Source: Patescibacteria group bacterium
GTDB taxonomy: Bacteria; Patescibacteriota; Minisyncoccia; Phycocordibacterales; UBA9973
Assembly (NCBI GenBank): GCA_028865035.1
Contig: JAGWLB010000001.1
Location: 6,673 to 70,672 of the forward strand
Length of the DNA stretch: 64,000 nt
Direction: 5' to 3'
How positions within the stretch are numbered: the first letter of the stretch is position 1; the number at the start of each line of letters is the position of its first letter. Below the pieces are notes generated by a model that had not been told where the DNA came from, ran no database searches, and was given only the letters and a program-made list of their open reading frames with translations. A program made the translations under genes and the position numbers. Below, piece by piece: positions 25,969 to 43,262 of this stretch.

Positions 25969-26778
25969 ATGATAATCATGATTCATCGCGCGAAGAAATC
26001 TTTAGGCCAAAACTTTCTTAAGTCTATACCAGCATTGAATATGATGTGTGAAGCGGGTAATGTCAGTATCGCAGATACGATACTTGAGATAGGTCCTGGT
26101 AAAGGTGCTCTAACGGAAAAACTTTTAGAAAAAGCAGGTCATGTAATAGCCATAGAAAAAGACCACGAACTTCTTGCGTTTCTAAAAGAAAAGTTTCAGG
26201 AAGAGATAGGGGATAAAAAATTAGAATTAATATATGGAGATATATTAGATTTTGATCCAAGTTCTATTGGGCTAAAAGAGTCAGAGTATAAAATCATTAG
26301 CAATATCCCTTACAATATTACAGGATCAATATTTAAGAAATTTCTTTCGGAAACTATTCAACCTTCGTTAATGATTCTACTTGTACAAAAAGAGGTTGCT
26401 GAGCGTATTGTGGCTCGGGACAGCAAAGAGAGTATTCTATCATTGAGTGTAAAAGCTTACGGTAATCCTAAATATATGATGAAAGTGGGTAAACGTTTCT
26501 TTTCTCCAAGCCCAAAAGTTGACTCGGCTATTATAGCAATTACAGATATTTCAAAGAAAAATTTTAATAACAATAAAAATCTAGAAGTAAAATTCTTTGA
26601 AATTATAAAAGCTTCTTTTGCCCACAAACGTAAGGTTCTGAGGAAAAATTTAGAATCTTTAACTTCAGCTGAAAAAATACACGGGTTGTTTAGTCTCCTT
26701 AATATTAATCCTCAGGCAAGGGCTGAGGATTTACATTTCTCTGTGTGGCTAAAAATAGCCAACTTTTTGAATGAATAA
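25969..26778 (+). CDS. rsmA: 16S rRNA (adenine1518/1519-N6)-dimethyltransferase
   Basis: SLGQNFL, EIGPGKGALT, NIPYNIT motifs; likely start at MIHRAKK (25978). Confidence 0.85.
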   Translation: MIIMIHRAKKSLGQNFLKSIPALNMMCEAGNVSIADTILEIGPGKGALTEKLLEKAGHVIAIEKDHELLAFLKEKFQEEIGDKKLELIYGDILDFDPSSIGLKESEYKIISNIPYNITGSIFKKFLSETIQPSLMILLVQKEVAERIVARDSKESILSLSVKAYGNPKYMMKVGKRFFSPSPKVDSAIIAITDISKKNFNNNKNLEVKFFEIIKASFAHKRKVLRKNLESLTSAEKIHGLFSLLNINPQARAEDLHFSVWLKIANFLNE

Positions 26779-26860: not shown

Positions 26861-27739
26861 ATGAATAAGTACTTACCAAGCAGACAATTCATAATTAGAG
26901 TCATAGTGATTGCCATAATTATTTCGGTTGCCTTTGGTATCTATAAATTAGTAATTTATTTTAAAAATAAAACAAGCCAAAAAACTTCATTGAAAGTTTT
27001 AGTTAAAGATTTAGTCCAGAAAGATACAAATAATAATGGTATTCCAGATTGGGAAGAATCACTTTGGGGTCTTGATCCGACTACAAATGGCCCTGCAAAC
27101 AAAGAATTTATATTAGCCAAGAGAGCAGCTCTTGCAAAAGATACTACTGTCCCAAAACTTTCTGACGGTATAACTCCATCCAAAGAAAACGAAGCTTTAT
27201 CTCAAGAATTCTTTGCTGTCATTATGTCTCTCCAACAGACTGGCAACTTAGATAGTGCTTCAATGCAATCAGTTGCTGATGCTATAAGTAAAAAAGTAGT
27301 TGCTACACCAATACCTGACATATATACCAAAGATATGGCAGTTATTGAAGACGATGGCACATTACCAATGATAGAATACTATACTGCTTACTTAAATCTA
27401 AATAATAAATATTATAAAGATGATGGTATCGGTACGGAGCTTTCTTTAATTGCCGTAGCATTAAGAGATAAAGACCAAGGAGCCTTAGACCAGGTAGGGA
27501 AAATAGGTGAGGCTTACAAAGCAATGGGTAAAGATCTTATGAAGATACCCGTACCGACAACATTTTTAGCGAATCATTTAGATTTAGCGAATAACTATGA
27601 AAAAATAGGAGAGTCTATCGACGATATGACGAAGATGCTTTCCGATCCAATGGTGGGTATGAGAGCATTTATAAATTACAACAAATACAGCGATGCATTA
27701 GCTAACGATATCAGTTTTCTTTCAGACAATTATAAATAA
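26861..27739 (+). CDS. Hypothetical bitopic membrane protein with a calcium-binding-loop-like motif; first gene of the T4SS-like cluster
   Basis: N-terminal TM; DTNNNGIPDWEE resembles DxDxDGxxDxxE loops. Confidence 0.5.
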   Translation: MNKYLPSRQFIIRVIVIAIIISVAFGIYKLVIYFKNKTSQKTSLKVLVKDLVQKDTNNNGIPDWEESLWGLDPTTNGPANKEFILAKRAALAKDTTVPKLSDGITPSKENEALSQEFFAVIMSLQQTGNLDSASMQSVADAISKKVVATPIPDIYTKDMAVIEDDGTLPMIEYYTAYLNLNNKYYKDDGIGTELSLIAVALRDKDQGALDQVGKIGEAYKAMGKDLMKIPVPTTFLANHLDLANNYEKIGESIDDMTKMLSDPMVGMRAFINYNKYSDALANDISFLSDNYK

Positions 27740-27765
27740 AAATGATATAATATTATTGACTATCT

Positions 27766-29934
27766 ATGAAGGGATTTACTAGAAAAAGAATATTATCGAT
27801 AGTGATAATTACAGCTATGCTTTCTACGCAAGTTGTTTTGCCTTTGCAAGCCAACGCTGGCACATTCTTAAACTATCATAATACAAACCCTTTCCCTGTT
27901 CCTAAATTATCATTAAGAGCCATAACTCCAGGGTTGCTTACATCAGTAGTAAGTTGTACTGGCATTACAAATAAAGCTGCATCAAAATTAATACAATTAC
28001 ACGATGCAATAAAAAAAGAAACCGACAAGCTACTAACTGGCATAAAAACTGATATTAAAAACCTTTTAATGAGTAACGCAAAAAAAATAGCACTTGAGAA
28101 ACAAGTTGCCGCAGTAAAAAGAAAAGCATTAGAAGCACTTGCAGCAACAAATGCAGGAGCGGGTGGCTCTATTTTAGGAGTTAAGGTAGGCGATGTAGTA
28201 CCATCTCTTGTTAATATAGGTATAGACGATTTATCAAAAGCACAAACTATAAACGTAAATGACAATGGTACCCATACAGCTGTTAGTAACACACAAACTA
28301 ATGCTGTGAATATAGCGAGTGCAGCTGATTCTCAACAACAATCAAAAGACTGTTTAAACGGTATTGCAAATGCTCTTATTAAAAGTCAGTTACAAAATAT
28401 GACAGAGCAAACAATGAACTGGGTGAATAGCGGATTTGGTGGCGACCCTATGTATGTGACAGATGTTAACTCGTTTATGAACGGTATAACTGATCAAATT
28501 CTATTGAAAGAAACAAGTTTGTTTAAGAACCCACTAACTAACGGCGACTATCCATACGGTCGCAACTTTGCACAAGGAGCAATTAACGGCAACCAGGCAT
28601 TGAATAATTTCCAGGATTCAATGAAGCAAGATCTTACAAGCTATCTTACTCCTGGGTCTACTCCCCAGACTTTCGCTACTGATTTCTCTCAAGGTGGATG
28701 GGATGGGTGGCTAGCTTTAACACAACATCCACAGAATAACCCGCTAGGTTTTACAATTAATGAAACACAACACATAGCTGATTTACAAAATACTCAGGTA
28801 AAAAATACAACTGATGAGATAAACCGCAACAGTGGCTACCTTGATCAAAAGAAATGTGTCCAGTGGGAGAATCTTGATAAAAGTGGAGAGGGTATACAAA
28901 CCACATCTGACACTGGTAAAAACCAAGATGGAGTCTTAAGGCCTGGCGATGTGACACAGACTGACTTGTGTATCAAATGGCAGACAATAACTCCAGGAAG
29001 TAATATAAAAACTAAAATTGATACTTATGTAAACACTCCTGAGCGTCAGATTGAACTCGCAAGAACTATGGATGATGCTTTGAATGCACTTTTTACAGCT
29101 CTTTTGGGTCAATTCCAAAAACAAGGTTTATACGGATTACAGTCTACTGATAATGCTGGTGTTAATAATGCCAATGGCGGTGGATTTGGTGTTAATCAGG
29201 TTTTTGATAGTAACGGTAACAGTCTGACTCCTATACGAACTTTTAGCGGAAATAGTGGTTTCACTTCTGGAGATGGATTCTTTGACCTCACAAAAGACTT
29301 AGGTAACACTTATAATCCTTTATCTACAACAAGTAATTGGATAATAGATAGCAAAGGCGTCCTACAAATTCAGTACGATTACCTAAACTTATTAAACAAA
29401 TCAAAGACAATTATGGATCAAGTTATGCCTGCTTTAGGAAAGCTTGATTACTGTATCCCAGGACCAAATCCAGATTGGAATAATATTTCTCAAGATGCAA
29501 TAAGTGCTTATATTGACTCAGTGAGTACAGGAACAACAACGCCACCTATCGACTTGGGTACTCTAGATAAAACTCTAGCAGATTACGGAACGCAAATAGA
29601 TAATACATATGGTCCTAATAGTCCTATGCAAAGCGGTGGCACTGGTAATACAAATTATCTAAAAATGTCATCTGAGGGTCTTAATATTACAAAAGATATG
29701 GGAACATATGCTGACACAATATCATCAGCAGAAGGCGACTTCAGTAGCTCACTTGCGGAAGCAAATTCAAATATTGCAAAGCTAAATATTATAAAAGATA
29801 AAGTAAATGCGATAATCATTGCTGCTCAGAAACGCCGTGCTGCTAAGAGAATACAGAGTGGCCTACCAAACGTATCGTCGGCTTGTTTAATATCAGAAAG
29901 AGTAACATATCTGGATAACGGTGTAATTAAATAA
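27766..29934 (+). CDS. Large secreted hypothetical protein (722 aa)
   Basis: Signal peptide MKGFTRKRILSIVIITAMLSTQVVLPLQANA; Gly/Asn/Thr-rich; no known domain. Confidence 0.55.
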   Translation: MKGFTRKRILSIVIITAMLSTQVVLPLQANAGTFLNYHNTNPFPVPKLSLRAITPGLLTSVVSCTGITNKAASKLIQLHDAIKKETDKLLTGIKTDIKNLLMSNAKKIALEKQVAAVKRKALEALAATNAGAGGSILGVKVGDVVPSLVNIGIDDLSKAQTINVNDNGTHTAVSNTQTNAVNIASAADSQQQSKDCLNGIANALIKSQLQNMTEQTMNWVNSGFGGDPMYVTDVNSFMNGITDQILLKETSLFKNPLTNGDYPYGRNFAQGAINGNQALNNFQDSMKQDLTSYLTPGSTPQTFATDFSQGGWDGWLALTQHPQNNPLGFTINETQHIADLQNTQVKNTTDEINRNSGYLDQKKCVQWENLDKSGEGIQTTSDTGKNQDGVLRPGDVTQTDLCIKWQTITPGSNIKTKIDTYVNTPERQIELARTMDDALNALFTALLGQFQKQGLYGLQSTDNAGVNNANGGGFGVNQVFDSNGNSLTPIRTFSGNSGFTSGDGFFDLTKDLGNTYNPLSTTSNWIIDSKGVLQIQYDYLNLLNKSKTIMDQVMPALGKLDYCIPGPNPDWNNISQDAISAYIDSVSTGTTTPPIDLGTLDKTLADYGTQIDNTYGPNSPMQSGGTGNTNYLKMSSEGLNITKDMGTYADTISSAEGDFSSSLAEANSNIAKLNIIKDKVNAIIIAAQKRRAAKRIQSGLPNVSSACLISERVTYLDNGVIK

Positions 29935-29938
29935 TTAT

Positions 29939-30874
29939 ATGGAACATAATAAACCTAAAAAAAGCAAAGCATTCATTATAACTTTTATAGCAGTTATGAT
30001 TCTTCTGCTGGTAGGATATTTTATTTTCTTAAATAGTAATAAACTTTTTGGAACAAAAAATTCGACAAGTATTAGCAAGATTTTTGCACCGCTACTAGGT
30101 ACTTCAAAACAAAAAACACTAAATACTATCGATAATAGTGGTAATACTTCACAAAATTCAAATTCTGCTAACACAAACAATGGTAATACTAATCCGACTA
30201 CTAGTACAAATGGGAATAGTAACACCAACCCAGTAACTGGAATAAGTGACGGTAATACAAATACTAGTAATCAAACTCTTGATGCAAACGGGAATCCTAT
30301 ATCTGTTGGTGGATTAAATGGGTCCAACAATATTGGGTCAGGAAGTCCAGGGAGTATTGATGGTTCTATCGGAGCAAACGGAAATATAAATAACAGCACA
30401 CTTAACTCTACTCCATCATTAAATCCTTTACCTACGCCAGGGAGTAATCCAGCATTAGCTAGCTCGACACCATCTCCGATCTCAACATCTATACCTAGCT
30501 CTACACCTAGTGTTGCATCAGCAACAATATCAACAACAAACGGCAATCTTTGCCCTGTAGATGATCCTTTAGTTTTTACAGATTCAGAGAAAGCTCAGCT
30601 AGATGAATTACTAAAAGAATATTATCTTATCTCTCCTACACTAAAAACTGCTGACGATATATCAGTGTTACAGGATGATATATCTACAAACCAAGCATTA
30701 GTAGATCAAGCAAATCAACTTACAAATGAATGCCAAGCAGAGAAATCGGACCCTAGTTATACTGGCCCTCAGGTTACGAAGAACAATCCTTACTACAGCG
30801 ACCCAAGTAACACTGGAGCTACGCCCTATATACCAACCTACAGTCAACTAGAACAGTTATTTAATATTTGGTAA
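29939..30874 (+). CDS. Bitopic membrane protein with N/T/S/P-rich linker and Cys-containing C-terminal domain
   Basis: TM FIITFIAVMILLLVGYFIFL; ~150-aa low-complexity linker. Confidence 0.5.
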   Translation: MEHNKPKKSKAFIITFIAVMILLLVGYFIFLNSNKLFGTKNSTSISKIFAPLLGTSKQKTLNTIDNSGNTSQNSNSANTNNGNTNPTTSTNGNSNTNPVTGISDGNTNTSNQTLDANGNPISVGGLNGSNNIGSGSPGSIDGSIGANGNINNSTLNSTPSLNPLPTPGSNPALASSTPSPISTSIPSSTPSVASATISTTNGNLCPVDDPLVFTDSEKAQLDELLKEYYLISPTLKTADDISVLQDDISTNQALVDQANQLTNECQAEKSDPSYTGPQVTKNNPYYSDPSNTGATPYIPTYSQLEQLFNIW

Positions 30875-30886
30875 TTATTTATTATT

Positions 30887-33571
30887 GTGAAAAAATTTCT
30901 TCCCACTATATTCATACTTCTAATTATTGCGAATCTTTTCGCTCCTTTTAGTGTGAGTGTTGATAAAAATAATACACCAGTTGTAAAAGCATCTGTAGCT
31001 GAAGCAACGGACACAGTGGGTATTAAAATAAGCGGCCATATTTCTCATACCGATACTAATATAACTCCTTGGTTAACAGTGGTATGGTATTTGGGTGCTG
31101 ATAATAGTAAAGCTTCAGTATTATTACAAAAAGTTGGTTCAACTGATATAACAAAAGCAGATATAGATATGAAGACAGATGATGCTGCTACGCAGGCTTA
31201 TGATGCTAGCCACAACGGAGATCCATTACCTTATACAGTACAAACAGGTAATATTCCTTTATCAGTATTACCAAACACAACATATAATGTAACATTAGTT
31301 GCAACTCAAAATCTTACATTTTGGGGTCATCCTCTTTCGACTGTTTATAATGGTCTAACAGCTGGAAGTAATCACGATGCTGCATATTTATTGTTTACAA
31401 TCACTACCAATAATCAAGGAGATATAACAAAAGTAGACAGTGGTTTAAAAAATAGTTTAAGCATAGATGCGTACATGCCACCATGTAGTATTGTAGGTGG
31501 AAATGGAACAATAGCTGGTTGTGCAGCGCAACTTTTATATTACGTATTGTTTATTCCTACTTCTTACATATTTGCTCTAACAGGGCAAATGTTTGATTTT
31601 ACATTTTTCTATTCTGTAAAAGATACTTCATATCAATCTCCTTTTGTGTTAAATGGTTGGGGGATAATTCGTGATTTCTGTAATATGTTCTTTATATTCG
31701 TATTGTTGTATATCGCTTTTGCTACAATATTAGATATTCACGGATTTAAAACTAAAGAGATGATAATCAATGTAATTATTATTGGTTTACTCATAAACTT
31801 TAGCCTCTTCGCTGCTCAGCTTATTATTGATTCTTCAAATATTCTGGCTAGAGTATTCTACTCTGATCAAAGTGTTAAAATTACTCAAGGTGGGGCAAAT
31901 GGAGTAACAAACAATACCCCAAAATTGAAAGTTGGGCCAAATGGTGAACTACCATTATCTGCTGCGATAGTAAACAAAGTTAATCCTCAAAATTTAATAA
32001 TAAACGGAGTAAATAACGTAGGGGTAGACGATCCTGTTAGTAACAGCAACAGCATAAGTAACACAACCATAGGTGGAAGCAGTTTAAATGCTGGGGGATT
32101 CATTTTAATAGTGTTACTTGCGGTTGCGGTGAACGTGGTGGGAATAATAGTATTCGTATCTGTAAGTATGATATTTATAACAAGAGTAATTGGATTATGG
32201 ATGGCTATGGTATTTGCGCCCCTTGCATTCTTCTCTTATGCGGTACCAAAAATGAAAAGCATAGATATGATTGGTTGGGAAAAATGGTGGCCTGAGACTA
32301 TTAAGCTTGCGTTCCTTGCTCCAGTGTTTATGTTCTTCTTGTATCTCATTATTCAATTCTTAGATACAGGACTTAGCCTTATTAATATACAAGGTCAAAA
32401 CAACATAGCTTTTATAGTAGCAACGGTTGTTCCTTTTGCTTTTATTATGATATTACTCTGGAAAGCAAAAAGTATTGCTAGTGAGATGTCTGGTAAACTC
32501 GGCCAGACCATTACTGGAGGTATTGCAACAATTGGAGGACTTGCACTTGGCGGAGCAGCATTAGGTGTTGCCTTTTCAGGAAGAAAAATTATTGGGGAAA
32601 GAATAGCCGCTAGATCAAGGACAGCAGATTCTATTCATTACGGTAAAGAAAAAATTGCATTTAATAAAAAACTGGAGGATTGGGAAAAGAATGGTAAAAA
32701 AGGAGATAAACCTAAATGGAAAGATCATGCAAAAGCAAATAATGTTAAAACTAATCTTCTCACTAAACTTGGTGGTAATTTAAATGCAAAACAAACAAAA
32801 ATAAATGAGGTGGATCATGCTCGACATGAAATTGATACTATAAAAGATAAGGCGGGATTAAAAGGTGTTAATGACGATAATCTTTCAGGTGTAGATAAAC
32901 AAAAACTAGCTACAACATTTGCAAAAGAAAAGAAGACAGAAATAGAATCTGAAATAAGAAGAGGTACTAAACCTTTATTAGATGAAAATGGTAAAGAAGT
33001 TAAAGATGCAAACAATGAAGTTATAACGGGAGGTGAAAGTGGTTTCAAAGCTGCAAATAGAGATAGGGTCACAAAAGAAATCAGAGATGCAAGTAGTGAT
33101 AATATTCATACTGATGGAGGACTTACGGACGCAGCAAAGAAAAAAGTTGAAGATCAATTAAATGTACAATTTAATGCTATATTAAAAACTTCTACAGACA
33201 AAGAAACGGAAAAAAGATTTAATCATCTACAAGAAGAGTCTAAACAAAAAGTTGGTGGATTTGATAGAGTCTTTGCTCAATCAAATAAAGGTAGTTATGA
33301 TGTCAGAAATCTATCTCAAACAAAAGTAGATAAAAGAGAGAGAGCATTCACAAAGATGAGTGCTGGCTTAATAGCTGGTATTGCTATGGGGGTAAGAACT
33401 GGGCTTAAGCATAGTAATGTTAACCACGGATCTGGCCAAGGTGACTTCTTAAAAGATATAGGGAATACAATAACAGAGGCTCTTAAGAGTACAAAACTAA
33501 AAGTAGAAATTGAAAAAAGTCATGGAACTAGTGGTGGGGATGCTCATACCACAGGTGGTGGACATCATTAA
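30887..33571 (+). CDS. Giant polytopic membrane protein, VirB6/TrbL/PrgH-like (GTG start)
   Basis: Signal peptide, ~230-aa extracytoplasmic domain, at least 6 TM helices, and a ~330-aa charged cytoplasmic tail. The call rests on architecture and synteny next to PrgI/VirB4 homologs, not on motifs. Confidence 0.45.
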   Translation: MKKFLPTIFILLIIANLFAPFSVSVDKNNTPVVKASVAEATDTVGIKISGHISHTDTNITPWLTVVWYLGADNSKASVLLQKVGSTDITKADIDMKTDDAATQAYDASHNGDPLPYTVQTGNIPLSVLPNTTYNVTLVATQNLTFWGHPLSTVYNGLTAGSNHDAAYLLFTITTNNQGDITKVDSGLKNSLSIDAYMPPCSIVGGNGTIAGCAAQLLYYVLFIPTSYIFALTGQMFDFTFFYSVKDTSYQSPFVLNGWGIIRDFCNMFFIFVLLYIAFATILDIHGFKTKEMIINVIIIGLLINFSLFAAQLIIDSSNILARVFYSDQSVKITQGGANGVTNNTPKLKVGPNGELPLSAAIVNKVNPQNLIINGVNNVGVDDPVSNSNSISNTTIGGSSLNAGGFILIVLLAVAVNVVGIIVFVSVSMIFITRVIGLWMAMVFAPLAFFSYAVPKMKSIDMIGWEKWWPETIKLAFLAPVFMFFLYLIIQFLDTGLSLINIQGQNNIAFIVATVVPFAFIMILLWKAKSIASEMSGKLGQTITGGIATIGGLALGGAALGVAFSGRKIIGERIAARSRTADSIHYGKEKIAFNKKLEDWEKNGKKGDKPKWKDHAKANNVKTNLLTKLGGNLNAKQTKINEVDHARHEIDTIKDKAGLKGVNDDNLSGVDKQKLATTFAKEKKTEIESEIRRGTKPLLDENGKEVKDANNEVITGGESGFKAANRDRVTKEIRDASSDNIHTDGGLTDAAKKKVEDQLNVQFNAILKTSTDKETEKRFNHLQEESKQKVGGFDRVFAQSNKGSYDVRNLSQTKVDKRERAFTKMSAGLIAGIAMGVRTGLKHSNVNHGSGQGDFLKDIGNTITEALKSTKLKVEIEKSHGTSGGDAHTTGGGHH

Positions 33572-33581
33572 TATATAAATT

Positions 33582-34601
33582 ATGGATCAAACACAATTAC
33601 AACAGCAAATATCCTTATATTTCTCAAAGTTACCAACAAATGTTCAACAAGTATTTTCTAGTATGACTTGGATGGAAACCTTGAAAGAAATTAGTATTAA
33701 GTTCGGTCTTAATAATGATCAGATAGAAACACTAGGCACAGAGACGACTTTAGTACTACTTGGAATTGTTAGCATAACAGACTATGAACAGACTCTTGCT
33801 AAAGAAATAAATATGCCGCATATAACTTTAGAGAAAATGTTTATGGAAATAAACAATTCAATATTAAAGCCTATTAGCTCATCTCTAGATCAAACTTATA
33901 ATGAACATGTTGAGTCATTGATTGAAGAAAAGTATGGTGGTTTAGAAAAGCTTGATGAACGTTTCACTAAGCTTCCCAAAGAAGTTCAAGAAGCTATTAC
34001 TGAATCAGATTATCAATCTACTCTATATAGTATAGGAAGCAAATATAAACTTTCTGTTAGTCAGATGGGAGATCTAGAAGAGGTTACCAATGGTGTGCTT
34101 CTAGGTATTATTCATCCAGATAAATACGAAGATGAAATCAAATCAAAGTTAAGCTTGCCAGCAGATAAAACGACTGAGCTTGTAAATGAAATAAATGAAA
34201 ATATTCTTAAAAATATCCGTGAAATATTAAAGTCTCACTGGGGCAAACAAGAAGAGAATTTAAGTAATACAGACGATGAAGTTCCATTACCACCATACGC
34301 TAAAAGCGATATTGTAAAAGAAAGTTCCACGCCTGTTAGTATAACTACACCGATAAAAGAATCTATACCGGTTCCATCGCCTAATACGCAGGTGGAAATA
34401 AGCAAAGATGAAAGTACTGTGGATAAAGGGAAAATAGAAAAAGATATTTTTAGTAGTAAGTTAAGTGGCCCGACAGTAAGCAGGCCTGTTATTAGCGACC
34501 ATTCTTTACCTGAAAACAGTATTAAAAAAACGATAACTTCTTCGGGGAAAACAGATTTGGACAAACCAAGACCCGACCCTTATCACGAACCTATAGAATA
34601 G
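33582..34601 (+). CDS. Soluble protein with two tandem ~85-aa repeats and a disordered S/P/T-rich tail
   Basis: Repeat 1 starts LPTNVQQVF...VLLGIVSITDYEQ...EINNSILKPI; repeat 2 starts LPKEVQEAI...VLLGIIHPDKYED...EINENILKNI. Confidence 0.5.
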   Translation: MDQTQLQQQISLYFSKLPTNVQQVFSSMTWMETLKEISIKFGLNNDQIETLGTETTLVLLGIVSITDYEQTLAKEINMPHITLEKMFMEINNSILKPISSSLDQTYNEHVESLIEEKYGGLEKLDERFTKLPKEVQEAITESDYQSTLYSIGSKYKLSVSQMGDLEEVTNGVLLGIIHPDKYEDEIKSKLSLPADKTTELVNEINENILKNIREILKSHWGKQEENLSNTDDEVPLPPYAKSDIVKESSTPVSITTPIKESIPVPSPNTQVEISKDESTVDKGKIEKDIFSSKLSGPTVSRPVISDHSLPENSIKKTITSSGKTDLDKPRPDPYHEPIE

Positions 34602-34620
34602 TTTGTGATACAATATAAGT

Positions 34621-35028
34621 ATGCAATTTAAAGTCCCACAATTTATCGACATTGAAGATAAACTCTTTGGACCTTTTACTTTTCGTCAGTTTGCATATAT
34701 GGCAGGGGGAGTAAGTATGATATTTGTTATTTATAAATTATTACCACTTTGGATCGGTATTTTTCTAATAATACCAGTTGGAATCCTAACTGGCCTCTTA
34801 ACCTTTTATAAGATAAATGATAAACCATTTATCTATTACTTACAGGCTGCTGTAAATTATGCTATATCAAGCAAGCTTTATATCTGGAAGCAGCGCTTAG
34901 TAAAACCAAGCGATAAAAAGGATGGTGCAGAAACAGCTCCTGAAACAACTTCGATTGTACCTATGACATCGACAAGTACTTTAAAAGATTTGGCTTGGAG
35001 TCTGGATGTACAAGAGAAAGAACAGTAA
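34621..35028 (+). CDS. PrgI/VirB3-like small T4SS membrane protein
   Basis: KVPQFIDIEDKLFGPFTFRQFAYMAGG followed by two TM helices, as in PrgI and Tn916 Orf17-type proteins; sits immediately upstream of VirB4. Confidence 0.55.
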   Translation: MQFKVPQFIDIEDKLFGPFTFRQFAYMAGGVSMIFVIYKLLPLWIGIFLIIPVGILTGLLTFYKINDKPFIYYLQAAVNYAISSKLYIWKQRLVKPSDKKDGAETAPETTSIVPMTSTSTLKDLAWSLDVQEKEQ

Positions 35029-35133
35029 TTAGGAATTAATAATTACGAATAAAAGAAGAAAATGCTATAATTTGAGTATAATTATTTAATTACGTTATCT
35101 GATTAATAATTATTAACTCATAATTAATTTCAT

Positions 35134-35787
35134 ATGGCTATAAATGCTCGCGCTGCACAAGATTTTGTGCCAATAAAAGAAGTTCGTAATGGTGTCATCA
35201 TTCTTAAAGATGGTGGTCTTCGAGCTGTTCTTATAGCTTCGTCTATAAACCTGTCATTGAAGTCTTCTGAGGAGCAAACTGCTATTATTAATCAGTTTCA
35301 AGCATTTTTAAATGGCTTAGATTTCTCTACACAGATTGTTGTGCAATCTCGTAGGCTCGATATCAGGCCGTATCTTTTAATGCTTGAAGCTCGAGAAAAA
35401 GAACAAACGGAAAAACTACTTAAAATACAAACAAGGGAGTATATGGAATTCATACGTTCTTTTACAGATGAAGTGAATATTATGACTAAGACATTTTTTG
35501 TTGTTGTGCCTTATAGTCAGACAATCTTAAAATCAAATAATGGAATGATAGATAAATTACTAGGATCTACAACACCTAAAAAGCAAATAGAGAACACCAA
35601 AAAGGCTATGGATATGGCAGATTTTGAAGAAAAACGTAGTCAGTTAGATGAGCGTGTAAGCGTTATTATTTCAGGACTTGGTGGTCTCGGTATACGTAGC
35701 TCTCAATTAAAAACAGAAGAAGTGGTTGAACTTTTTTATAAAACATTTAATCCTGGTGATATCAGTCAGGGGATTAAACTACAATAA
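35134..35787 (+). CDS. VirB4/TraC-family N-terminal domain, encoded as a separate ORF
   Basis: FVPIKEVRNGVIILKDGGLRAVLIASSINLSLKSSEEQTAIINQFQAFLN resembles the N-terminus of Gram-positive VirB4 proteins; stop codon lies 1 nt before the next ATG. Confidence 0.6.
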   Translation: MAINARAAQDFVPIKEVRNGVIILKDGGLRAVLIASSINLSLKSSEEQTAIINQFQAFLNGLDFSTQIVVQSRRLDIRPYLLMLEAREKEQTEKLLKIQTREYMEFIRSFTDEVNIMTKTFFVVVPYSQTILKSNNGMIDKLLGSTTPKKQIENTKKAMDMADFEEKRSQLDERVSVIISGLGGLGIRSSQLKTEEVVELFYKTFNPGDISQGIKLQ

Positions 35788-35788
35788 T

Positions 35789-37651
35789 ATGGGAATTATT
35801 TCATCAATATTTGGTAGTAAGGGAGATAAGAATAGTACTAATCCAAAAAGTACAGTTATGCCTGTGATTCCTACGGAGATTTATAGAGCAGCAACTCTAG
35901 AACTTCAAGATATTATCGCACCTTCTGCTTTACAAATAACTCCGAAAGGTTTAAATCTTGGTGATAAAATTGTTAGAACTTTTTTTGTTATATCTTACCC
36001 TAGATATCTGACAGACAATTGGTTTTCTCCAATTATTAATCTGGATAAAGTTTTTGATGTATCAATTTTTATACATCCGATAGATACTTCTGAAATACTT
36101 CGTTCATTCCAGAAAAAAGTTGCTGAGGTTCAGAGTCAGATTTCTATTCGTGAATCTAAAGGGTTAGTTCGTGATCCAATGCTAGATACCGCTTATCGTG
36201 ATCTTGAAAGTTTGCGTGATAATTTAATGCAGGCTCAAGAGAAAATGTTTGATGTTGGTTTATATATTACAATCTATGCTGATAATGAAAACGATCTGTT
36301 TAAAATTGAAAGTGAAATAAAGTCTCTTCTTGAGTCTAAGCTTATCTATTTAAAACCAGCATTGTTCCAGCAAGACGAAGCTTTTAAGAGTGTTATTCCT
36401 CTTGGGACAGATATATTAGCCGTTCACCAGAAGCTCAACACTGAACCTCTTTCAAGTCTTTTCCCATTTGTATCGTTTGATCTCACGTCGGATAAAGGTA
36501 TTTTGTATGGTGTTAATCGTCACAACTCAAGTCTTATCATCTTTGATAGATTTTCATTACCAAACTATAATTCTATAACTTTTGCGACTTCTGGTGCTGG
36601 TAAATCTTACGCGACTAAACTTGAGATTATACGTACTTTGATGTTTGATACTGAAGTAATAGTCATAGACCCTGAAAGGGAATATGAATATTTGTCCGAA
36701 GCTGTAGGTGGGAGATATTTTAATATTGCACTTTCTTCAGATCACCATATTAATCCTTTTGATTTACCAATACCAACATCAGACGAAACTCCTGCTGATG
36801 TTTTGCGCGCCAATACTATAAACCTGGTTGGATTATTCCGTATAATGCTCGGCGGTCTTACTCCGGAAGAAGATTCTATAATAGACAGAGCAATAACCGA
36901 AACTTATGCTTTGAAAGATATTACTGCTGAGTCAAACTTTGCAAATATAGAACCTCCTCTTCTAATGGATTTTGAAATGGTTTTAGTTGGAATGGATGGA
37001 AGTGAGTCTCTGATTCAACGCTTAGCTAAGTTCACTCACGGTTCTTGGGCTTCTTTCTTGAATCAACCATCAAACGTAGATATTAACCGTAAATTCGTTG
37101 TCTTTTCTGTGCGTGATATGGAAGATGAATTAAAACCAGTAGCAATGTACATAGTCACTCATTATATATGGAATGCAATTCGTAAAAACATAAAAAAACG
37201 TTTACTTGTTGTCGATGAAGCTTGGTGGATGATGAAATCAGAAGACACTGCTTCTTTCTTATATTCTATAGCGAAACGTGGACGAAAATACTATTTAGGT
37301 CTTGCCACTATCACTCAAGATGTCGGAGACTTTATGAAAAGTCCATATGGTGTGCCGATAGTTACAAACTCATCTATCCAGTTATTATTAAAGCAATCTC
37401 CTTCGACTATAGATATTCTACAGAAAACCTTTAATCTTACCGATGAAGAAAAATACTTACTCTTAGAAGCTAATGTGGGCGAGGGAATCTTCTTTGCGGG
37501 ACTCAAACACGTGGCCGTCAAAACCATAGCTTCATATACAGAGGATCAAATAATTACTTCTGACCCATCTCAGATTTTAGCTATTAAAAAAGCAAAGGAT
37601 GATTTAGTAGAACAAGAAGCCAATCAAGATAAAAATCAGGCTAGTATTTAG
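35789..37651 (+). CDS. VirB4-like T4SS ATPase (ATPase domain)
   Basis: Walker A FATSGAGKSYATKLEI; Walker B LLVVDEAWWMM; TraC/VirB4 family organisation. Confidence 0.8.
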   Translation: MGIISSIFGSKGDKNSTNPKSTVMPVIPTEIYRAATLELQDIIAPSALQITPKGLNLGDKIVRTFFVISYPRYLTDNWFSPIINLDKVFDVSIFIHPIDTSEILRSFQKKVAEVQSQISIRESKGLVRDPMLDTAYRDLESLRDNLMQAQEKMFDVGLYITIYADNENDLFKIESEIKSLLESKLIYLKPALFQQDEAFKSVIPLGTDILAVHQKLNTEPLSSLFPFVSFDLTSDKGILYGVNRHNSSLIIFDRFSLPNYNSITFATSGAGKSYATKLEIIRTLMFDTEVIVIDPEREYEYLSEAVGGRYFNIALSSDHHINPFDLPIPTSDETPADVLRANTINLVGLFRIMLGGLTPEEDSIIDRAITETYALKDITAESNFANIEPPLLMDFEMVLVGMDGSESLIQRLAKFTHGSWASFLNQPSNVDINRKFVVFSVRDMEDELKPVAMYIVTHYIWNAIRKNIKKRLLVVDEAWWMMKSEDTASFLYSIAKRGRKYYLGLATITQDVGDFMKSPYGVPIVTNSSIQLLLKQSPSTIDILQKTFNLTDEEKYLLLEANVGEGIFFAGLKHVAVKTIASYTEDQIITSDPSQILAIKKAKDDLVEQEANQDKNQASI

Positions 37652-37690
37652 GTTGGCAAGCTCTTGTAGTTATCATATAATATATAGGTA

Positions 37691-38680
37691 ATGCATTCTC
37701 ATAAAAAATTTCTTTTTGGAATATTGTTAATACTTTGTATCGTTTCTATACCTAGTTATAGTAAGGCTATCGACGGTATTGGTTTGCAGGAATCTGACAT
37801 TACAGCAAGCACACAGCCAGAAAACCCTGAGCCTTATCAAGATGTAACCATAAGTCTTGTTAGTTATGCTACAGACCTAAACAAAGCCACTATCGAGTGG
37901 CGCAGTGGATCAAAAGTTTTACTATCGGGTATTGGTCGTACAAACTTCTCTATAAAAGCTCCGGGCCCAAATGTGACGGCAGTTTATACTGCTACAATAA
38001 CTCCAGTAGGAGACACAAACAGTATTACAAAACAAATTATAATTAGTCCATCAGACATAGAAGTGTTATGGGAATCTGTAGACGGGTACACCCCTCCTTT
38101 TTATAAAGGTAAATCTTTTGCATCACCAGAAAGCCTTATAAAAGTTGTAGCTATACCTGACACAAGCGCTGTGAAATCTAGTAGTAATCTAGTATATACT
38201 TGGAAAAATAATGGTAAAACAATACAAAGTGCTTCTGGTTATGGTAAGGACTCTTATATATTTGCAAATAATGAATTAAACAGAAGTGAAGAGATTACGG
38301 TATCTGCCTCAACAGTAGATGGATCATATAATGCAACAAAGACAATAAACATACCGATAATTGATCCAAAAATTGTTTTTTATAAAAGATCACCTACCGA
38401 TGGAGTTTTGTACAATAGTGCATTAGTAAATGATGTATTTATGTCTGGGGACGAGTTTACCATTGTTGCCACACCATACTTTCTTGCTACTTTAGGTAAT
38501 GAGGATAAATTTACTTATAGCTGGCAAATAAATGGTAATAGTATAAGTACTCCTTCAAAGAAAACAGAGTTAACGGTCCGACCAAGCTCTCGTGGAGGAT
38601 ATGCAACAATAGGCGTTACAATGGAAAACTTAAACACATTTTTCCAAAAAGTTACTGGCCAATTAAAAATAAACTTATAA
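37691..38680 (+). CDS. Secreted hypothetical protein (beta-rich)
   Basis: Signal peptide MHSHKKFLFGILLILCIVSIPSYSKA. Confidence 0.5.
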   Translation: MHSHKKFLFGILLILCIVSIPSYSKAIDGIGLQESDITASTQPENPEPYQDVTISLVSYATDLNKATIEWRSGSKVLLSGIGRTNFSIKAPGPNVTAVYTATITPVGDTNSITKQIIISPSDIEVLWESVDGYTPPFYKGKSFASPESLIKVVAIPDTSAVKSSSNLVYTWKNNGKTIQSASGYGKDSYIFANNELNRSEEITVSASTVDGSYNATKTINIPIIDPKIVFYKRSPTDGVLYNSALVNDVFMSGDEFTIVATPYFLATLGNEDKFTYSWQINGNSISTPSKKTELTVRPSSRGGYATIGVTMENLNTFFQKVTGQLKINL

Positions 38681-38681
38681 T

Positions 38682-39977
38682 ATGAAAAAAACTTTATCTA
38701 TCTTTATATTAATAACTACATTGCTTTCATTTAGTAGTAAGGTTTCAGCTGATAACTCTATCACTTTGTATGTTTCTCAAAGTGATTCAACTGCTACAAT
38801 TACAGCTAAATATTTAGGCGCAGATAACTGTAGTGGAGATATTCTTGTTACCGACAACAAAAATCCGCCAATTTATAGTAAACTTTCTCCTATTTCATTT
38901 ACTGCTGGTACCCAATCTGCTACAGTTGAATTAACAGGTCTTACTAAAGGAGAAACATATAACGCTATGGCTAATTGTTCAGGTTCATTAGCAAAAGCCA
39001 CGTCTCAAGTATCTACTTTTACTTTCGGCTCTATATCACCTGATAACAACGCTCCATACGACGTAAGCCCACAAAAATATGACAATTCTGTTGATACTTA
39101 TAATCTTTTAGCTCCTATAGGTGGTTTAAAAAGTATCACAACAAATGGTGGGACTTGCCCAATAGACCCTAAAATGGCAGGTGGTATTGGTTGTTATCTT
39201 AATATTATTTTCAAAATTGGTATTGGTCTTGCTGGAGCGTTATCTGTCATAATGATTGTTATAGGTGGTGTGCAATATATGGGTAATGAATCAATTTTTG
39301 GTAAAAATGAGGCAAAAAGTAAAATAATGTCAGCAATTTTAGGCCTCCTTATAGCTCTTGGTGCTTTTGCCCTCTTAAATACTATTAATCCTGATCTGAC
39401 GGGGGCGAAAGGGGTACAAATAGATCAGGTCAGCGCAGAGATAGATGAAGCACCAATACTATCAGATGCAAATACTTCAGTGCCGTCGGGAACAACAAAC
39501 AGTTTTGCGGATTGCCCAGGTGGAGTAAGAAAAGTAGGTACTACTGGTGGAAATTTTATATTCTGCTCAGCTTATGCAAGTAAATTACAACAAATGTTTT
39601 CAGATGCATATCATGCTAATCCTAGTATATTTTTATCTGGAGGAGGATTTAGGACTCATGATTCACAAATAGCATTGAGAAATAAAAATTGTCCCGATCC
39701 AAAGTTAACAGTTCCTTCATCGTCTTGCCATCCACCAACAGCAAGACCAGGAACGTCAAATCATGAACAAGGTCTTGCTGTTGATTTGACTTGTGATGGT
39801 GAATTAATAAATTGGCAAACAAACAAAAGTGCTCATGATTACCAACCTAAATTTCCGATTAATCAAAAAACAAAAAAGTGTTTTGACTGGTTAGCGTCTA
39901 ATGCTGGTAATTATGGATTTAAAAATTTATCATCAGAAAATTGGCATTGGTCAACAGGTCCTAATGCTGGTAGATAA
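38682..39977 (+). CDS. Secreted protein with VirB2/TrbC-pilin-like hydrophobic hairpin fused to a VanY/LAS-type zinc peptidase domain
   Basis: Signal peptide; paired hydrophobic helices IGIGLAGALSVIMIVIGGVQYM...IMSAILGLLIALGAFALL; C-terminal SNHEQGLAVD (SxHxxGxAxD) and ENWH (ExxH) motifs of VanY/M15 peptidases. Confidence 0.6.
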   Translation: MKKTLSIFILITTLLSFSSKVSADNSITLYVSQSDSTATITAKYLGADNCSGDILVTDNKNPPIYSKLSPISFTAGTQSATVELTGLTKGETYNAMANCSGSLAKATSQVSTFTFGSISPDNNAPYDVSPQKYDNSVDTYNLLAPIGGLKSITTNGGTCPIDPKMAGGIGCYLNIIFKIGIGLAGALSVIMIVIGGVQYMGNESIFGKNEAKSKIMSAILGLLIALGAFALLNTINPDLTGAKGVQIDQVSAEIDEAPILSDANTSVPSGTTNSFADCPGGVRKVGTTGGNFIFCSAYASKLQQMFSDAYHANPSIFLSGGGFRTHDSQIALRNKNCPDPKLTVPSSSCHPPTARPGTSNHEQGLAVDLTCDGELINWQTNKSAHDYQPKFPINQKTKKCFDWLASNAGNYGFKNLSSENWHWSTGPNAGR

Positions 39978-39982
39978 TATTT

Positions 39983-41302
39983 ATGCCTAAAAAAACAAAA
40001 ATCATTTTCATAATTGTATTTATACTAGTTGGATCTATTATGCTTGGTTTTTATTTCTATGTTAGTAAAAAAAATACATCTGGTACAAACAGTGGCTCAA
40101 ATAATGCATACCAACCTTTCTTAGGAGGGAACACAACACCACAAGGAGGAAATGGTAATAGTACTAGTAGTAATAATACGAGTGGTACGCAAACAAATAC
40201 CCCTATCGATAGCCAGGTTGCTCCACAAGCTTCTAAATTCCATCAGATAACAAATATATCAGTTGCAGGGGCGGCTTACTTGGAGGACACTCGTAAAGTG
40301 CAGACAACAGGGGTCGCTTTACCTGGTGGTTTAACCCAACCAACAAGTACCACGAAAACAACAACTAAAGTAGCAGCACCGAGAGTCGAAACTGTTCCTT
40401 CTGTAAGATATGTTGAGCGTGCTACTGGATACATAGATGAAATGTATTTAGATACAAAAGTTTCAGGAGAAATATCGAACTCTACAATACCTAGTATATA
40501 TAGAGCATTTTTTGGTAATGATGCAAATAGTGTTATTTATCAGTATCTTTCACCGGACACGGGTGATACAATAAACAGCTTTATGGCAACCCTTGGTGGT
40601 AGCAAAGGAGAATTTCTTCCATCTAATGTTATAAACATTAGTCTTTCTCCTGATAAAAGTAAGTTTTTTTATCTTGTAAAAACTTCAAGTGGTGTGAATG
40701 GTATAGTGAGGTCATTTGGTGATACTAAAGCTTCACAAGTTTTCAGTTCTCGTTATAGTGAATGGCTATCTCAGTGGGTAACAAAAGATAAAGTATTTTT
40801 AACAACAAAAGCTTCGTCTGCTGTAGATGGTAGTGTATTTAGTTTGAATATTATAAGCGGTATATCGACTAAAATATTTGGTAGTGTGAAAGGTTTAACA
40901 ACTTTAGCAAACAATGACGGATCTCTTATTTTGTATAGTACTTCAGATTCGTCAGTTCCTCAATTAAAAATATTCAACACAAAAAACCGTACGACCTTTG
41001 ATTTAAATACACCAGGATTAGCAGAGAAATGTATTTGGAGTGCAGATAATATAAACATTTATTGTGCTATACCAAGTAATATAATAGGTGGAGACTATCC
41101 GGATTCTTGGTATCAAGGATTAGTATCTTTTAATGATCGTTTTGCAAAAATAAACTCAATCACTGGTGATCAGATAGATATTGCAGATTCTACAAATGAA
41201 ATAGCTGTAGATGCTACTAAATTATTCTTAAACAAAGATGAGAGTCAGCTATTTTTCATAAACAAAAAGGACTCCACGCTATGGAGTCTAGACTTGAACT
41301 AA
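39983..41302 (+). CDS. Bitopic membrane protein with predicted beta-propeller-like ectodomain
   Basis: N-terminal TM, N/T/S/G-rich linker, beta-strand-rich C-terminal 300 aa; last gene of the cluster. Confidence 0.5.
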   Translation: MPKKTKIIFIIVFILVGSIMLGFYFYVSKKNTSGTNSGSNNAYQPFLGGNTTPQGGNGNSTSSNNTSGTQTNTPIDSQVAPQASKFHQITNISVAGAAYLEDTRKVQTTGVALPGGLTQPTSTTKTTTKVAAPRVETVPSVRYVERATGYIDEMYLDTKVSGEISNSTIPSIYRAFFGNDANSVIYQYLSPDTGDTINSFMATLGGSKGEFLPSNVINISLSPDKSKFFYLVKTSSGVNGIVRSFGDTKASQVFSSRYSEWLSQWVTKDKVFLTTKASSAVDGSVFSLNIISGISTKIFGSVKGLTTLANNDGSLILYSTSDSSVPQLKIFNTKNRTTFDLNTPGLAEKCIWSADNINIYCAIPSNIIGGDYPDSWYQGLVSFNDRFAKINSITGDQIDIADSTNEIAVDATKLFLNKDESQLFFINKKDSTLWSLDLN

Positions 41303-41303
41303 A

Positions 41304-41762
41304 CTATTCTGCTATATATTTTATAACAACCCTCCTGTTTTGTCCGTATCCTTCGGATTCTGTTTTAATATCTGGAGCGTTTTCTAAGAACATATGTACA
41401 ATGCGTCGTTCGTAGGCTGGCATAGGGTCTATCTCTATATTACTCTTGAAGTAACGAGCTCTCTCAGCCATCATATGTGCGATGGTTTTTAAATTATTAA
41501 AGCGCTTTTTTTGATAACCATTCACATCAATAAAAATATTTTTAGTTTCTTCTTCGGCTGTATCTTTTTCAATCATTTTGTGGACTAGGTGGTTTAGGGA
41601 ACGCAATGTTTCACCGTCGCGTCCAATAATAAACCTAGAATCGGGTGTATCTATCATACACCAAAGATAATTACCGTCTGAAGAAAATTCGCATTTTGAA
41701 ATAGTGCAGTTAAGATGTTTGAAAATATCTTCTATTATTTTTTTTATTTGGTCTTCTTTCAT
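41304..41762 (-). CDS. jag: Jag/KhpB RNA-binding protein (KH + R3H)
   Basis: RFIIGRDGETLRSLNHLV KH segment; C-terminal R3H-like ERRIVHMFLEN; conserved position after yidC. Confidence 0.75.
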   Translation of the reverse strand: MKEDQIKKIIEDIFKHLNCTISKCEFSSDGNYLWCMIDTPDSRFIIGRDGETLRSLNHLVHKMIEKDTAEEETKNIFIDVNGYQKKRFNNLKTIAHMMAERARYFKSNIEIDPMPAYERRIVHMFLENAPDIKTESEGYGQNRRVVIKYIAE

Positions 41763-41767
41763 AATTT

Positions 41768-42526
41768 TTATATAACATTGTCTTTCAAGGCTTTTCTAAC
41801 ATACCACTCTTGGATTATAGTAAAAACGTTACTTGTGATCCAGTATAATGCGACAGCTGCTGATATTTTATAAGCTATGAATACTATAAATATGGGTAAT
41901 ATGTATTTTACATTCATTTGCATACTATCAGAAAGCTGATCTTGGAAATTTTTAGTATTATTTTCTGGCATTTCTTTCACTACTTCTACTTTCGGCTTGA
42001 TTGGTGAAGCTAAGTATCCTTGAATAAATTGTGAAATACCAGCTAATACCGCAAGTACTATACTTTTGCTATGAACTTCTATTAGTCCTAAGAAATTAGT
42101 GTGAAGGTAAGCTGGTGCTTTTATAAAAGAATATAGTGGCCCTGTGTCTAAAGATAATCCTTTATAGAAAACATAATAAAGAGCAAAAATAAAAGGAAGT
42201 TGTAGTAACACAACTAAACAACCAGAAAAAGGATTGACCCCGTATTTTTTATACAATTCGAAAGTTTTCTTTGCTTGTTCTTCTTTGTTTGGAATTTCTT
42301 TCTTAATACGCTTAAGCTCAGGCTCAACACGCTTCATAAGAATCTGGCTTTTAATAGATTTCTTAGTTAGAGGGAACAGGGCTAGTTTAACAATGATAGT
42401 TAAAAGAATAATACCGAAACCAACGTCACCAAAAGTTATAGTTTTTATTAATAAGATGAGCGCGTTGTAAATTGGTTGATAGAAAATTGTGTTCCAAATT
42501 GCATACATTGGTCTATTGTAGCTCAA
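41768..42526 (-). CDS. yidC: Membrane protein insertase YidC (short form)
   Basis: Polytopic 252 aa; synteny rpmH-rnpA-yidD-yidC-jag. Confidence 0.8.
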   Translation of the reverse strand: MSYNRPMYAIWNTIFYQPIYNALILLIKTITFGDVGFGIILLTIIVKLALFPLTKKSIKSQILMKRVEPELKRIKKEIPNKEEQAKKTFELYKKYGVNPFSGCLVVLLQLPFIFALYYVFYKGLSLDTGPLYSFIKAPAYLHTNFLGLIEVHSKSIVLAVLAGISQFIQGYLASPIKPKVEVVKEMPENNTKNFQDQLSDSMQMNVKYILPIFIVFIAYKISAAVALYWITSNVFTIIQEWYVRKALKDNVI

Positions 42527-42574
42527 AAAGACTTAAAACCAAAATTCTATTAATATACTTAATATTTTTATTGA

Positions 42575-42781: not shown

Positions 42782-42787
42782 ATATTA

Positions 42788-43141: not shown

Positions 43142-43262
43142 TTGCTCGTCCTTTACGTCTACGAGCTTGTGTTACCTTTTTACCACCTGGTGATTTTGTT
43201 CTAACTAAGAAGCCGTGTGTTTTGGCCCTCTTTCTTCTGTTGGGTTGATATGTTTGAGACAT
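43122..43262 (-). CDS. rpmH: 50S ribosomal protein L34
   Basis: [46 protein letters not shown]; start set at the conserved M, not the longer ORF in the track. Confidence 0.8.

Follow-up and report, generated by a model that had tools for sequence, protein, structure and literature searches.

A chromosomal type IV secretion gene cluster beside the probable replication origin of a Patescibacteria genome, apparently co-opted for a non-conjugative role

What purpose does a type IV secretion system (T4SS) serve in a Patescibacteria genome when the genes for DNA conjugation are missing from its surroundings? The question is raised by eleven open reading frames (ORFs), referred to here in gene order as O1 to O11, which run co-directionally on the + strand at 26861..41302 of a 64-kb window (the whole analysed stretch of 64,000 nucleotides (nt), positions 6,673 to 70,672 of contig JAGWLB010000001.1 in assembly GCA_028865035.1). 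Our analysis indicates that this is very probably the Patescibacteria chromosomal T4SS in its Paceibacteria (Parcubacteria/Nomurabacteria-like) form, related to MPF_FATA systems and apparently co-opted for a non-conjugative role. As such, it belongs to a known system, published in 2023-2025 together with its non-conjugative reading, and is not a new discovery. All eleven ORFs lie where a first-pass annotation of the window had placed them, and its reading of a T4SS cluster of the Gram-positive kind in a candidate phyla radiation (CPR)-like genome is supported by Pfam and NCBIfam matches and by a recurrent gene order. The tight packing that it described also holds, but its gap range of 1-30 nt does not, as the spacers measure, in gene order, 26, 4, 12, 10, 19, 105, 1, 39, 1 and 5 nt (1-105 nt overall), the longest separating the PrgI gene (O6) from O7. 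The G+C content of the cluster (0.33-0.37) is the same as that of the remainder of the window. In a promoter and terminator scan, promoter-like sites were fewer than in shuffled sequence and terminators were unremarkable, so that no operon boundaries can be claimed.

A GTDB scan with one genome per species returned at least 593 loci, of which 80, selected by VirB4 similarity, were kept; counts of loci given below refer to this sample of metagenome-assembled genomes, mostly labelled Paceibacteria, Nomurabacteria or Parcubacteria, with many bearing a 'Saccharibacteria' or generic label. The order ksgA-O1-O2-(O3)-O4-O5-O6-O7-O8-O9-O10-O11, followed by jag-yidC-rnpA and then dnaA-dnaN, recurs in the 80 species genomes, and because the identical gene order is found in that many species representatives, the cluster is not a chance arrangement. 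In the window, its upstream boundary is the housekeeping gene ksgA (rRNA adenine dimethylase; 25969..26778, + strand; PF00398, E 1e-57), and directly downstream, jag, yidC, yidD and rnpA occupy the - strand and precede dnaA and dnaN, which are on the + strand (41304..46052, all assigned by Pfam), a flank whose synteny was seen in 50-59 related loci. The spacer between dnaA and dnaN (44752-44907) contains four DnaA-box matches (TTATCCACA; one perfect, three with one mismatch) and is probably oriC, so the cluster would abut the replication origin. The remaining window ORFs with a recognisable domain are ordinary chromosomal genes.

The energy-providing component of the system is encoded by O8 (35789..37651), the body of a VirB4 ATPase with 620 amino acids (aa), counted from the ATG at 35789. 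Profile hidden Markov model (HMM) searches, which the first-pass annotation had proposed as a check on VirB4 kinship, found that similarity: O8 matches P-loop_TraG (PF19044, E 2e-24) and AAA_10/DUF87 (PF12846, PF01935) in Pfam, and it scores 372 bits, against a cut-off of 325, with the NCBIfam model NF045971 ('VirB4-like conjugal transfer ATPase, CD1110 family') over profile positions 183-732 of 752. Its Walker A (SGAGKS, residue 268) and Walker B (LLVVDE, residue 472) motifs are both kept in 78/78 aligned relatives, and it has more than 8000 homologues, the best 120 of which are 88-100% identical and all about 610 aa long. The ATPase ORF as listed by the ORF-finding tool begins at a TTG at 35726; the ATG at 35789, which lies 1 nt past the O7 stop and in a different reading frame, is the plausible start.

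Immediately ahead of it, O7 (35134..35787) encodes a soluble, TrsD-like protein of 217 aa that represents the VirB4 N-terminal domain as a separate chain. Its best NCBIfam match is VirB4_plasma (NF045975, the Mbov_0397 VirB4 model; E 1.3e-10, profile 104-244 of 894), accompanied by TrsD (NF041427; E 7.8e-8, 32 bits, far under the 200-bit curated cut-off) and the CD1110 VirB4 model NF045971 (E 4.2e-5, profile 2-119 of 752). Because O7 matches the N-terminal parts of full-length VirB4 profiles, O7 and O8 tile a single VirB4 model. An hhalign comparison of O7 with pSK41 TrsD was not significant, and a profile search of PDB sequences gave no match; as judged from sequence profiles, the kinship with TrsD is one of remote homology and not of membership in the curated family. 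O7 is present and adjoins virB4 in 80/80 loci. Further, phmmer retrieved 2215 relatives from 1.84 billion representative proteins, and among the 150 listed, nearly all stand alone and most have about 200-250 aa. Two long relatives, P0228 (797 aa) and P0233 (898 aa), combine an O7-like N-terminus with an O8-like C-terminus, the portions past O7 being 56% and 49% identical to O8, respectively; because these natural fusions join both halves, O7 and O8 belong together.

A VirB4 that is spread over two ORFs, 1 nt apart and in different frames, could also mark a decaying remnant, in which virB4 was broken by a frameshift and the system is dead. That reading is refuted by the conservation of the two-ORF layout and retains practically no probability: O7 and O8 are separate genes in 76/76 loci where both could be delimited, with variable spacing and in all three relative frames. 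Both are also strongly conserved across the loci (52-91% identity for O7 and 75-94% for O8), the Walker motifs are intact, and the functional pSK41/pGO1 system shows this split too, as trsD plus trsE. An alternative genetic code as the cause was likewise ruled out, given that the frames of the two ORFs differ and that table 11 yields long ORFs throughout the window. Hence, of the earlier description of a VirB4 split into two ORFs (35134..37651), the two ORFs stand, whereas the 'split' is, by these comparisons, a conserved TrsD plus VirB4 gene pair and not damage.

The gene before this pair, O6 (34621..35028), encodes a small membrane protein of 135 aa that the first-pass annotation had likened to PrgI/VirB3, in agreement with its match to the Pfam family PrgI (PF12666; E 5e-9, 37 bits against a cut-off of 27) and a second match to TcpE (E 8e-5). 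Hydropathy shows a single hydrophobic stretch, long enough to form a hairpin of two helices, and O6 was found in 76/80 loci at 40-81% identity.

Is the cluster, then, the transfer module of an integrative and conjugative element (ICE) or plasmid, with its relaxase and coupling protein encoded elsewhere? Such an origin is suggested by the closest non-CPR relatives of its VirB4, which are conjugative-plasmid ATPases of monoderms (Streptomyces, Bacillales and Clostridium) at no more than 36% identity, by the NCBI protein name 'conjugal transfer protein TraC', and by one tyrosine recombinase in the window (10667-11608), about 15 kb upstream of the cluster. However, the position between ksgA and jag/dnaA is fixed in 80 species, the base composition equals that of the surroundings, and the cluster borders carry no relaxase, VirD4, integrase or repeats. 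The absence of a relaxase and of VirD4 from the window, which had been noted from the sequence, is borne out by two kinds of search: Pfam detects neither a VirD4/coupling protein nor a relaxase domain among the ORFs of the window, and tblastn with TrsK and PcfC (VirD4) and with PcfG and Nes (relaxases) gave no hit, whether in the window or up to 10 kb from virB4 in the 80 loci. Relaxases were also found in only 103/3035 genomes by a survey of Patescibacteria (Quinonero-Coronel et al. 2025; PMC12102498). Finally, VirB4 is conserved above DnaA. Specifically, median identities across the loci are 80% for O8, 61% for O7 and 49% for O6, compared with 67% for DnaA, 59% for DnaN and 51% for YidC, and VirB4 (35789-37651) exceeds DnaA (43394-44746) in 53/53 loci, which is unusual for a secretion ATPase, although the contrast is inflated, as the loci were chosen by VirB4 similarity. 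Among the best 120 VirB4 homologues (88-100% identity) and the 80 loci (75-94%), those that are named are exclusively Patescibacteria or generic 'bacterium'. An ICE or plasmid module is thus largely refuted and very improbable. Because position and order are fixed in 80 Paceibacteria species genomes, the cluster is chromosomal and not mobile; it is a long-resident, strongly constrained chromosomal system rather than an ICE or plasmid fragment, and it looks vertically inherited.

These features agree with the T4SS already described for this phylum. PMC12102498, which covers 3035 Patescibacteria genomes, reports a monophyletic VirB4 clade nested within MPF_FATA, in which TrsD is the commonest VirB4 companion, joined by PrgI/VirB3, VirB6 and VirB2-like pilins (PF18895); VirB1 homologues are linked to virB4 chiefly in Paceibacteria, relaxases are almost absent, and the T4SS lies near dnaA, dnaN, ksgA, rnpA and rpmH. 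In S. epibionticum, a T4SS (SEML1_0006-0019) proved essential for epibiotic growth (Wang et al. 2023; PMC10633639), and this homologous cluster is without a recognisable coupling protein and relaxase (PMC10633639; PMC12857230). The present cluster shares with these systems a TrsD-like gene beside virB4, PrgI/VirB3, VirB6, a PF18895 pilin nearby and a hydrolase, has no relaxase nearby, and occupies the same chromosomal location beside dnaA, dnaN, ksgA and rnpA; its VirB4 is 75-100% identical to Paceibacteria proteins. In essentials there is no difference. The Saccharimonadia form has an array of free pilins, whereas here there is a single pilin hairpin, fused to a hydrolase. Placement in MPF_FATA likewise follows from the CD1110 family being the best curated model of VirB4, above its cut-off, and from the monoderm origin of the nearest plasmid homologues, an assignment made by profile and similarity.

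More distant systems help to delimit what has been kept. The first-pass annotation likened the gene order to prgH-I-J-K-L of pCF10, and prgH (VirB6), prgI (VirB3), prgJ (VirB4), prgK (hydrolase) and prgL of this Enterococcus faecalis Prg/Pcf system are indeed roughly collinear with the cluster, but trsC-D-E-F-G of pSK41/pGO1 fits at least as well. In this Staphylococcus Trs system, also of MPF_FATA, a VirB3-like TrsC (135 aa), TrsD (227 aa), TrsE (672 aa), a membrane protein and a hydrolase follow one another in like order, TrsE residues 3-617 align to O8 across its whole length at an identity of only about 24%, and a small CagC/VirB2-like protein is encoded as well. In contrast to the present cluster, pSK41 has VirD4 (TrsK), a relaxase (Nes), topoisomerase III and a single-stranded DNA-binding protein, it conjugates DNA, and its hydrolase is a CHAP domain unfused to a pilin. 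For pCF10, the Pfam family of PrgI is the one that matches O6; PrgJ is a single chain of 796 aa whose residues 228-772 align to O8, PrgH is small (266 aa, compared with 894 aa for O4), and the VirB8-like PrgL, the adhesin PrgB, the coupling protein PcfC and the relaxase PcfG were not found here, while the present cluster has additional genes between VirB6 and VirB3 and past VirB4. Mycoplasma ICEs share the N-terminal part of the Mbov_0397 VirB4 model with O7 (E 1.3e-10) and the Mbov_0395 protein with the hairpin of O10 (E 1.5e-4), and both they and this cluster come from wall-less or monoderm lineages within MPF_FATA; yet these scores are far under the curated cut-offs, and the Mycoplasma ICE is a mobile element with its own transposase. 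Relative to the Gram-negative VirB-type Trw system of R388, sequence identity is about 10%, and the cluster shows no VirB5, VirB8 or VirB11; the ORFs of the cluster and of the window are all without a domain of the VirB7/VirB9/VirB10 outer-membrane core, and this organism is presumed to be a monoderm.

The polytopic partner of the ATPase had been described as VirB6/TrbL-like. In O4 (30887..33571, 894 aa), a signal peptide is followed by an ectodomain that resembles FN3 (residues ~45-190), by a membrane core of helices (~209-601) and by an extended, charged tail at the C-terminus; searches of Pfam, NCBIfam and PDB sequences gave no match for it or for 54 relatives. When residues 1-620 were modelled with AlphaFold2 from 73 sequences (predicted local distance difference test score (pLDDT) 79.4, predicted template modelling score (pTM) 0.70), an FN3-like beta-sandwich (~45-190) preceded a helical membrane bundle (~209-601). 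Most of the other fold matches listed were FN3 or further beta-sandwich domains falling on the ectodomain, and Foldseek of this model against PDB returned only noise, mostly green fluorescent protein. The O4 family aligned with TrsL of pSK41 (TrbL family) at an hhalign probability of 78% over O4 residues 208-268. With moderate confidence, we regard O4 as an extended VirB6 at the level of the modelled fold, and VirB4 is then encoded together with both of its inner-membrane partners, VirB3 and VirB6. A precomputed tag for PF19590, a putatively TrbL-like family, on 9 of 120 listed O4 relatives was set aside, as hmmscan failed to reproduce it and the accession was in no paper that we found.

The most distinctive protein of the cluster is O10 (38682..39977, 431 aa), which the first-pass annotation had described as a cell-wall hydrolase fused to a pilin-like hairpin. 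It comprises, in order, a signal peptide, a variable N-terminal domain, a hairpin of two transmembrane (TM) segments (residues ~161-240, nt 39162-39401) and a VanY/LAS metallopeptidase domain (residues 298-424, nt 39573-39953), the last of which matches VanY (PF02557) at E 8e-10 and carries the VanY motifs SxHxxGxAxD and ExWH as SNHEQGLAVD and ENWH. In O10 itself, the pilin matches are weak (residues 168-235; T4SS_pilin PF18895, E 0.023; Mbov_0395 pilin-like NF045849, E 1.5e-4), but at the family level the hairpin is firm, with PF18895 in 55/60 positional orthologues (best E 9e-10) and TrbC/VirB2 (PF04956) in 17/60. In these 60 orthologues, the C-terminal enzyme varies among NlpC/P60 (12), VanY (9), YkuD (5), Amidase_5 (4), Peptidase_M15_4 (3), several SLT types and CHAP (2), and the hairpin is the sole portion conserved throughout. 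A hairpin HMM found one such protein per locus in 67/70 loci and at least 100 residues past the hairpin in 74/82 domain matches; among the window ORFs, O10 was its only match. The family is, in terms of its predicted domains, a constant VirB2-like hairpin plus a variable hydrolase domain. The predicted topology runs from the signal peptide to the outside, through TM1, a lysine-rich cytoplasmic loop and TM2, and again to the outside, and because of this topology the hydrolase would sit outside the membrane, on the cell-wall side. What our comparison newly adds is that a cell-wall hydrolase, of a swappable kind, almost always forms one fused protein with the pilin hairpin. The available text of PMC12102498 gives VirB2-like and VirB1-like matches near virB4 separately and does not mention the one-protein case. 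Three loci (L017, L056 and L066) have two tandem or nearby pilin-hairpin/hydrolase genes in place of one (e.g., L017:12862-14616 and L017:15982-17868).

The remaining proteins are, for the most part, orphans in sequence, as had been claimed: profile searches of Pfam, NCBIfam and PDB sequences with O1, O2, O5 and O9 gave nothing interpretable, and O1, O2, O3 and O5 stay orphans. Hydropathy predicts an N-terminal signal peptide or TM anchor for O1, O2, O3, O4, O9, O10 and O11 and no TM segment for O5, O7 and O8. The earlier description of six unrecognised proteins as secreted or bitopic therefore fails for one of them, O5 (33582..34601, 339 aa), which has neither a predicted signal peptide nor a TM segment and is probably cytoplasmic. 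O5 contains two helical repeats, each about 90 aa long, and a disordered tail; its C-terminal DPY motif is conserved, with D332, P333 and Y334 invariant or nearly so in 37 relatives, and it had no meaningful match in Pfam, NCBIfam or PDB. O1 (26861..27739, 292 aa), the first gene past ksgA, is a bitopic protein that keeps this position in 39 related loci at 21-53% identity. Its single N-terminal TM segment (residues 14-32) is followed by a DTNNNGIPDWEE motif, which by eye looks like a Ca-binding repeat, and then by a region that appears helical by eye; within the motif, D55, W64 and L68 are invariant among relatives, and searches of Pfam, NCBIfam and PDB profiles gave no match. O2 (27766..29934, 722 aa) is a secreted, mostly helical protein with a signal peptide and conserved Cys, Trp and Gly motifs, and it is a candidate surface or wall-spanning component; the structure prediction that had been proposed for it yielded a model, but one too poor for fold assignment. 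O3 (29939..30874, 311 aa), a bitopic protein in which a long, low-complexity linker rich in N, S and T joins the N-terminal TM segment to a small C-terminal domain, is poorly conserved, being detectable in just 11/80 loci, and has no Pfam match.

Two further proteins flank O10. O9 (37691..38680, 329 aa) is secreted, with a signal peptide, and occurs in 76/80 loci at 27-63% identity; weak Ig_3, PKD and BiPBP_C matches in a few relatives suggest that it probably consists of Ig-like domains, and a search against PDB sequences gave no match. O11 (39983..41302, 439 aa), found in 66/80 loci, is bitopic: a low-complexity linker connects its N-terminal TM segment with an extracellular domain. Its family profile matches TolB (7mx5_A) at E 0.0023, the remaining weak PDB matches are nearly all TolB chains, and relatives carry PD40 (4/60) and PG_binding_1 (7/60), so that the extracellular domain is probably a TolB-like beta-propeller. 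In the available text of PMC12102498, neither the pilin-hydrolase fusion nor the accessory set O1, O2, O5, O9 and O11 appears to be described.

How might these parts work together? By analogy with other T4SS, VirB4 hexamers (O7 and O8) would dock on VirB3 (O6) and VirB6 (O4) and power transport as well as the assembly of a channel across the envelope, perhaps together with a short structure resembling a pilus. O10 would cut peptidoglycan locally with its enzyme domain, thereby opening the cell wall, and may form a short tube of pilus type through polymerisation of its hairpin, while O11, O9, O2, O1 and O3 would build or decorate the wall-spanning or host-contact part; because its C-terminal DPY motif is conserved, O5 may be a cytoplasmic adaptor. 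Such a machine would serve obligate host-cell association, through protein delivery or the uptake of host macromolecules, and not DNA conjugation. Conjugation by this T4SS is unlikely, and the non-conjugative, host-interaction role that the first-pass annotation preferred is supported by our results and is also the reading favoured in PMC12102498, PMC10633639 and PMC12857230. The last of these, a 2025 review, offers the speculation that exchange or uptake takes place through a conduit made up of the T4SS and a pilus. For a cultivated Minisyncoccota strain that feeds on RNA of its host, a 2026 preprint (bioRxiv 10.64898/2026.06.21.733656) describes tubular structures at the interface with the host, which may be T4SS pili.

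Several points, beside the selection effect in the DnaA comparison, weigh against this interpretation. According to PMC12102498, VirD4-like genes are distant from virB4 in most Patescibacteria genomes, and because of this a distant coupling protein is likely here as well. Further, a VirB8-like (NTF2-fold) bitopic protein of the PrgL, TcpC or TraM type was not found in the cluster. Profiles of O1, O9 and O11 matched neither PrgL/PrgD by hhalign nor PDB sequences, although the hhalign positive controls also failed; the method is insensitive against single pCF10 or pSK41 proteins (true PrgI and TrsD pairs stay below 7%), and the negatives for PrgL, PrgD, PrgC, TrsF and the other proteins compared carry little weight. 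Lastly, the function is drawn by analogy, and both the substrates and the directions of transport proposed are putative.

Alternatively, the cluster could be a DNA-uptake apparatus, like ComB of H. pylori or archaeal Ced, that draws on host or environmental DNA as a nucleotide source. T4SS-based importers require no relaxase, Patescibacteria are without nucleotide synthesis (PMC12857230, 2026 preprint), and in class ABY1 the T4SS adjoins comF, recG and radA, according to PMC12102498. Yet competence in S. epibionticum needs type IV pili and ComEC, and comEC deletion is viable while the T4SS is essential (PMC12857230). Within the window, the O8 match to CedB (NF041017, E 1e-7) is weak, with a score of 31 bits against a 700-bit cut-off, and the ComM-like gene and pcrA that lie upstream, with ksgA between them and the cluster, have ordinary housekeeping roles. 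On balance, DNA uptake seems improbable. A bolder form of the host-interaction reading is that the Paceibacteria T4SS is a core housekeeping organelle for host feeding, a wall-piercing conduit that could import macromolecules of the host, for example RNA, nucleotides or lipids. We put this forward tentatively and consider it doubtful as it stands; it is suggested because the ATPase is conserved above DnaA, because the sole VirB2-like pilin module is fused to an interchangeable peptidoglycan hydrolase, and because the O10 gene is flanked by lineage-specific proteins with probable Ig-like domains and a probable TolB-like propeller. If it were true, a single protein (O10) would unite the roles of VirB2 and VirB1, and the import of host macromolecules would mean a direction of transport and a class of substrate that are established for no T4SS.

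The wider importance of the system lies in the biology of its bearers, given that Patescibacteria account for much of bacterial diversity and need host cells, and that few other machines have been shown, as the T4SS has in S. epibionticum, to be essential for a host-dependent lifestyle. The window contributes a clean, complete Paceibacteria example and raises no question beyond the 2023-2025 literature. Its new points are modest: the pilin-hydrolase fusion, a fold-level VirB6 with an FN3 ectodomain, the probable TolB-like propeller protein and the very high conservation of VirB4. Details that may be useful for experiments are the two-chain VirB4, the fold-level VirB6, the pilin-hydrolase fusion with its swappable enzyme and the conserved accessory protein whose propeller is probably TolB-like.

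Elsewhere in the window, pcrA/uvrD (23895-25829) was considered as a cluster member and rejected, as ksgA intervenes and pcrA is an ordinary helicase. Upstream of it lie two large, adjacent, lysine/glutamate-rich orphan ORFs (19165-21483 and 21497-23551; 772 and 684 aa), for which membership found no support either, with ksgA again intervening; they showed no Pfam match, no TM segment and no link to the T4SS, and by eye the product of 19165-21483 has an 'IDHHH' motif resembling DHH phosphoesterases. Further upstream (12640-18832) are PNPase, a DksA/TraR-type zinc-finger protein, a ComM-like Mg-chelatase ATPase and an M23-LysM peptidase. In this phylum, RNA feeding has been tied by the 2026 preprint to PNPase and VirB4; in the window, the two are about 12 kb apart, with unrelated genes between them. 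Beyond dnaN, a class I (Trp/Tyr-type) aminoacyl-tRNA synthetase of 489 aa (48969-50438) matches its catalytic domain in two stretches, the best from residue 226, a pattern suggestive of inserted sequence or an extended N-terminus. Finally, the region 52502-58642 encodes a PilB-like ATPase of type IV pili or type II secretion (PF00437, E 1e-115) on the - strand and, past it on the + strand, three ORFs without clear domains, one of them an 847-aa DUF11 protein; it is possibly part of a pilus or adhesin locus, a second surface machine typical of CPR genomes.

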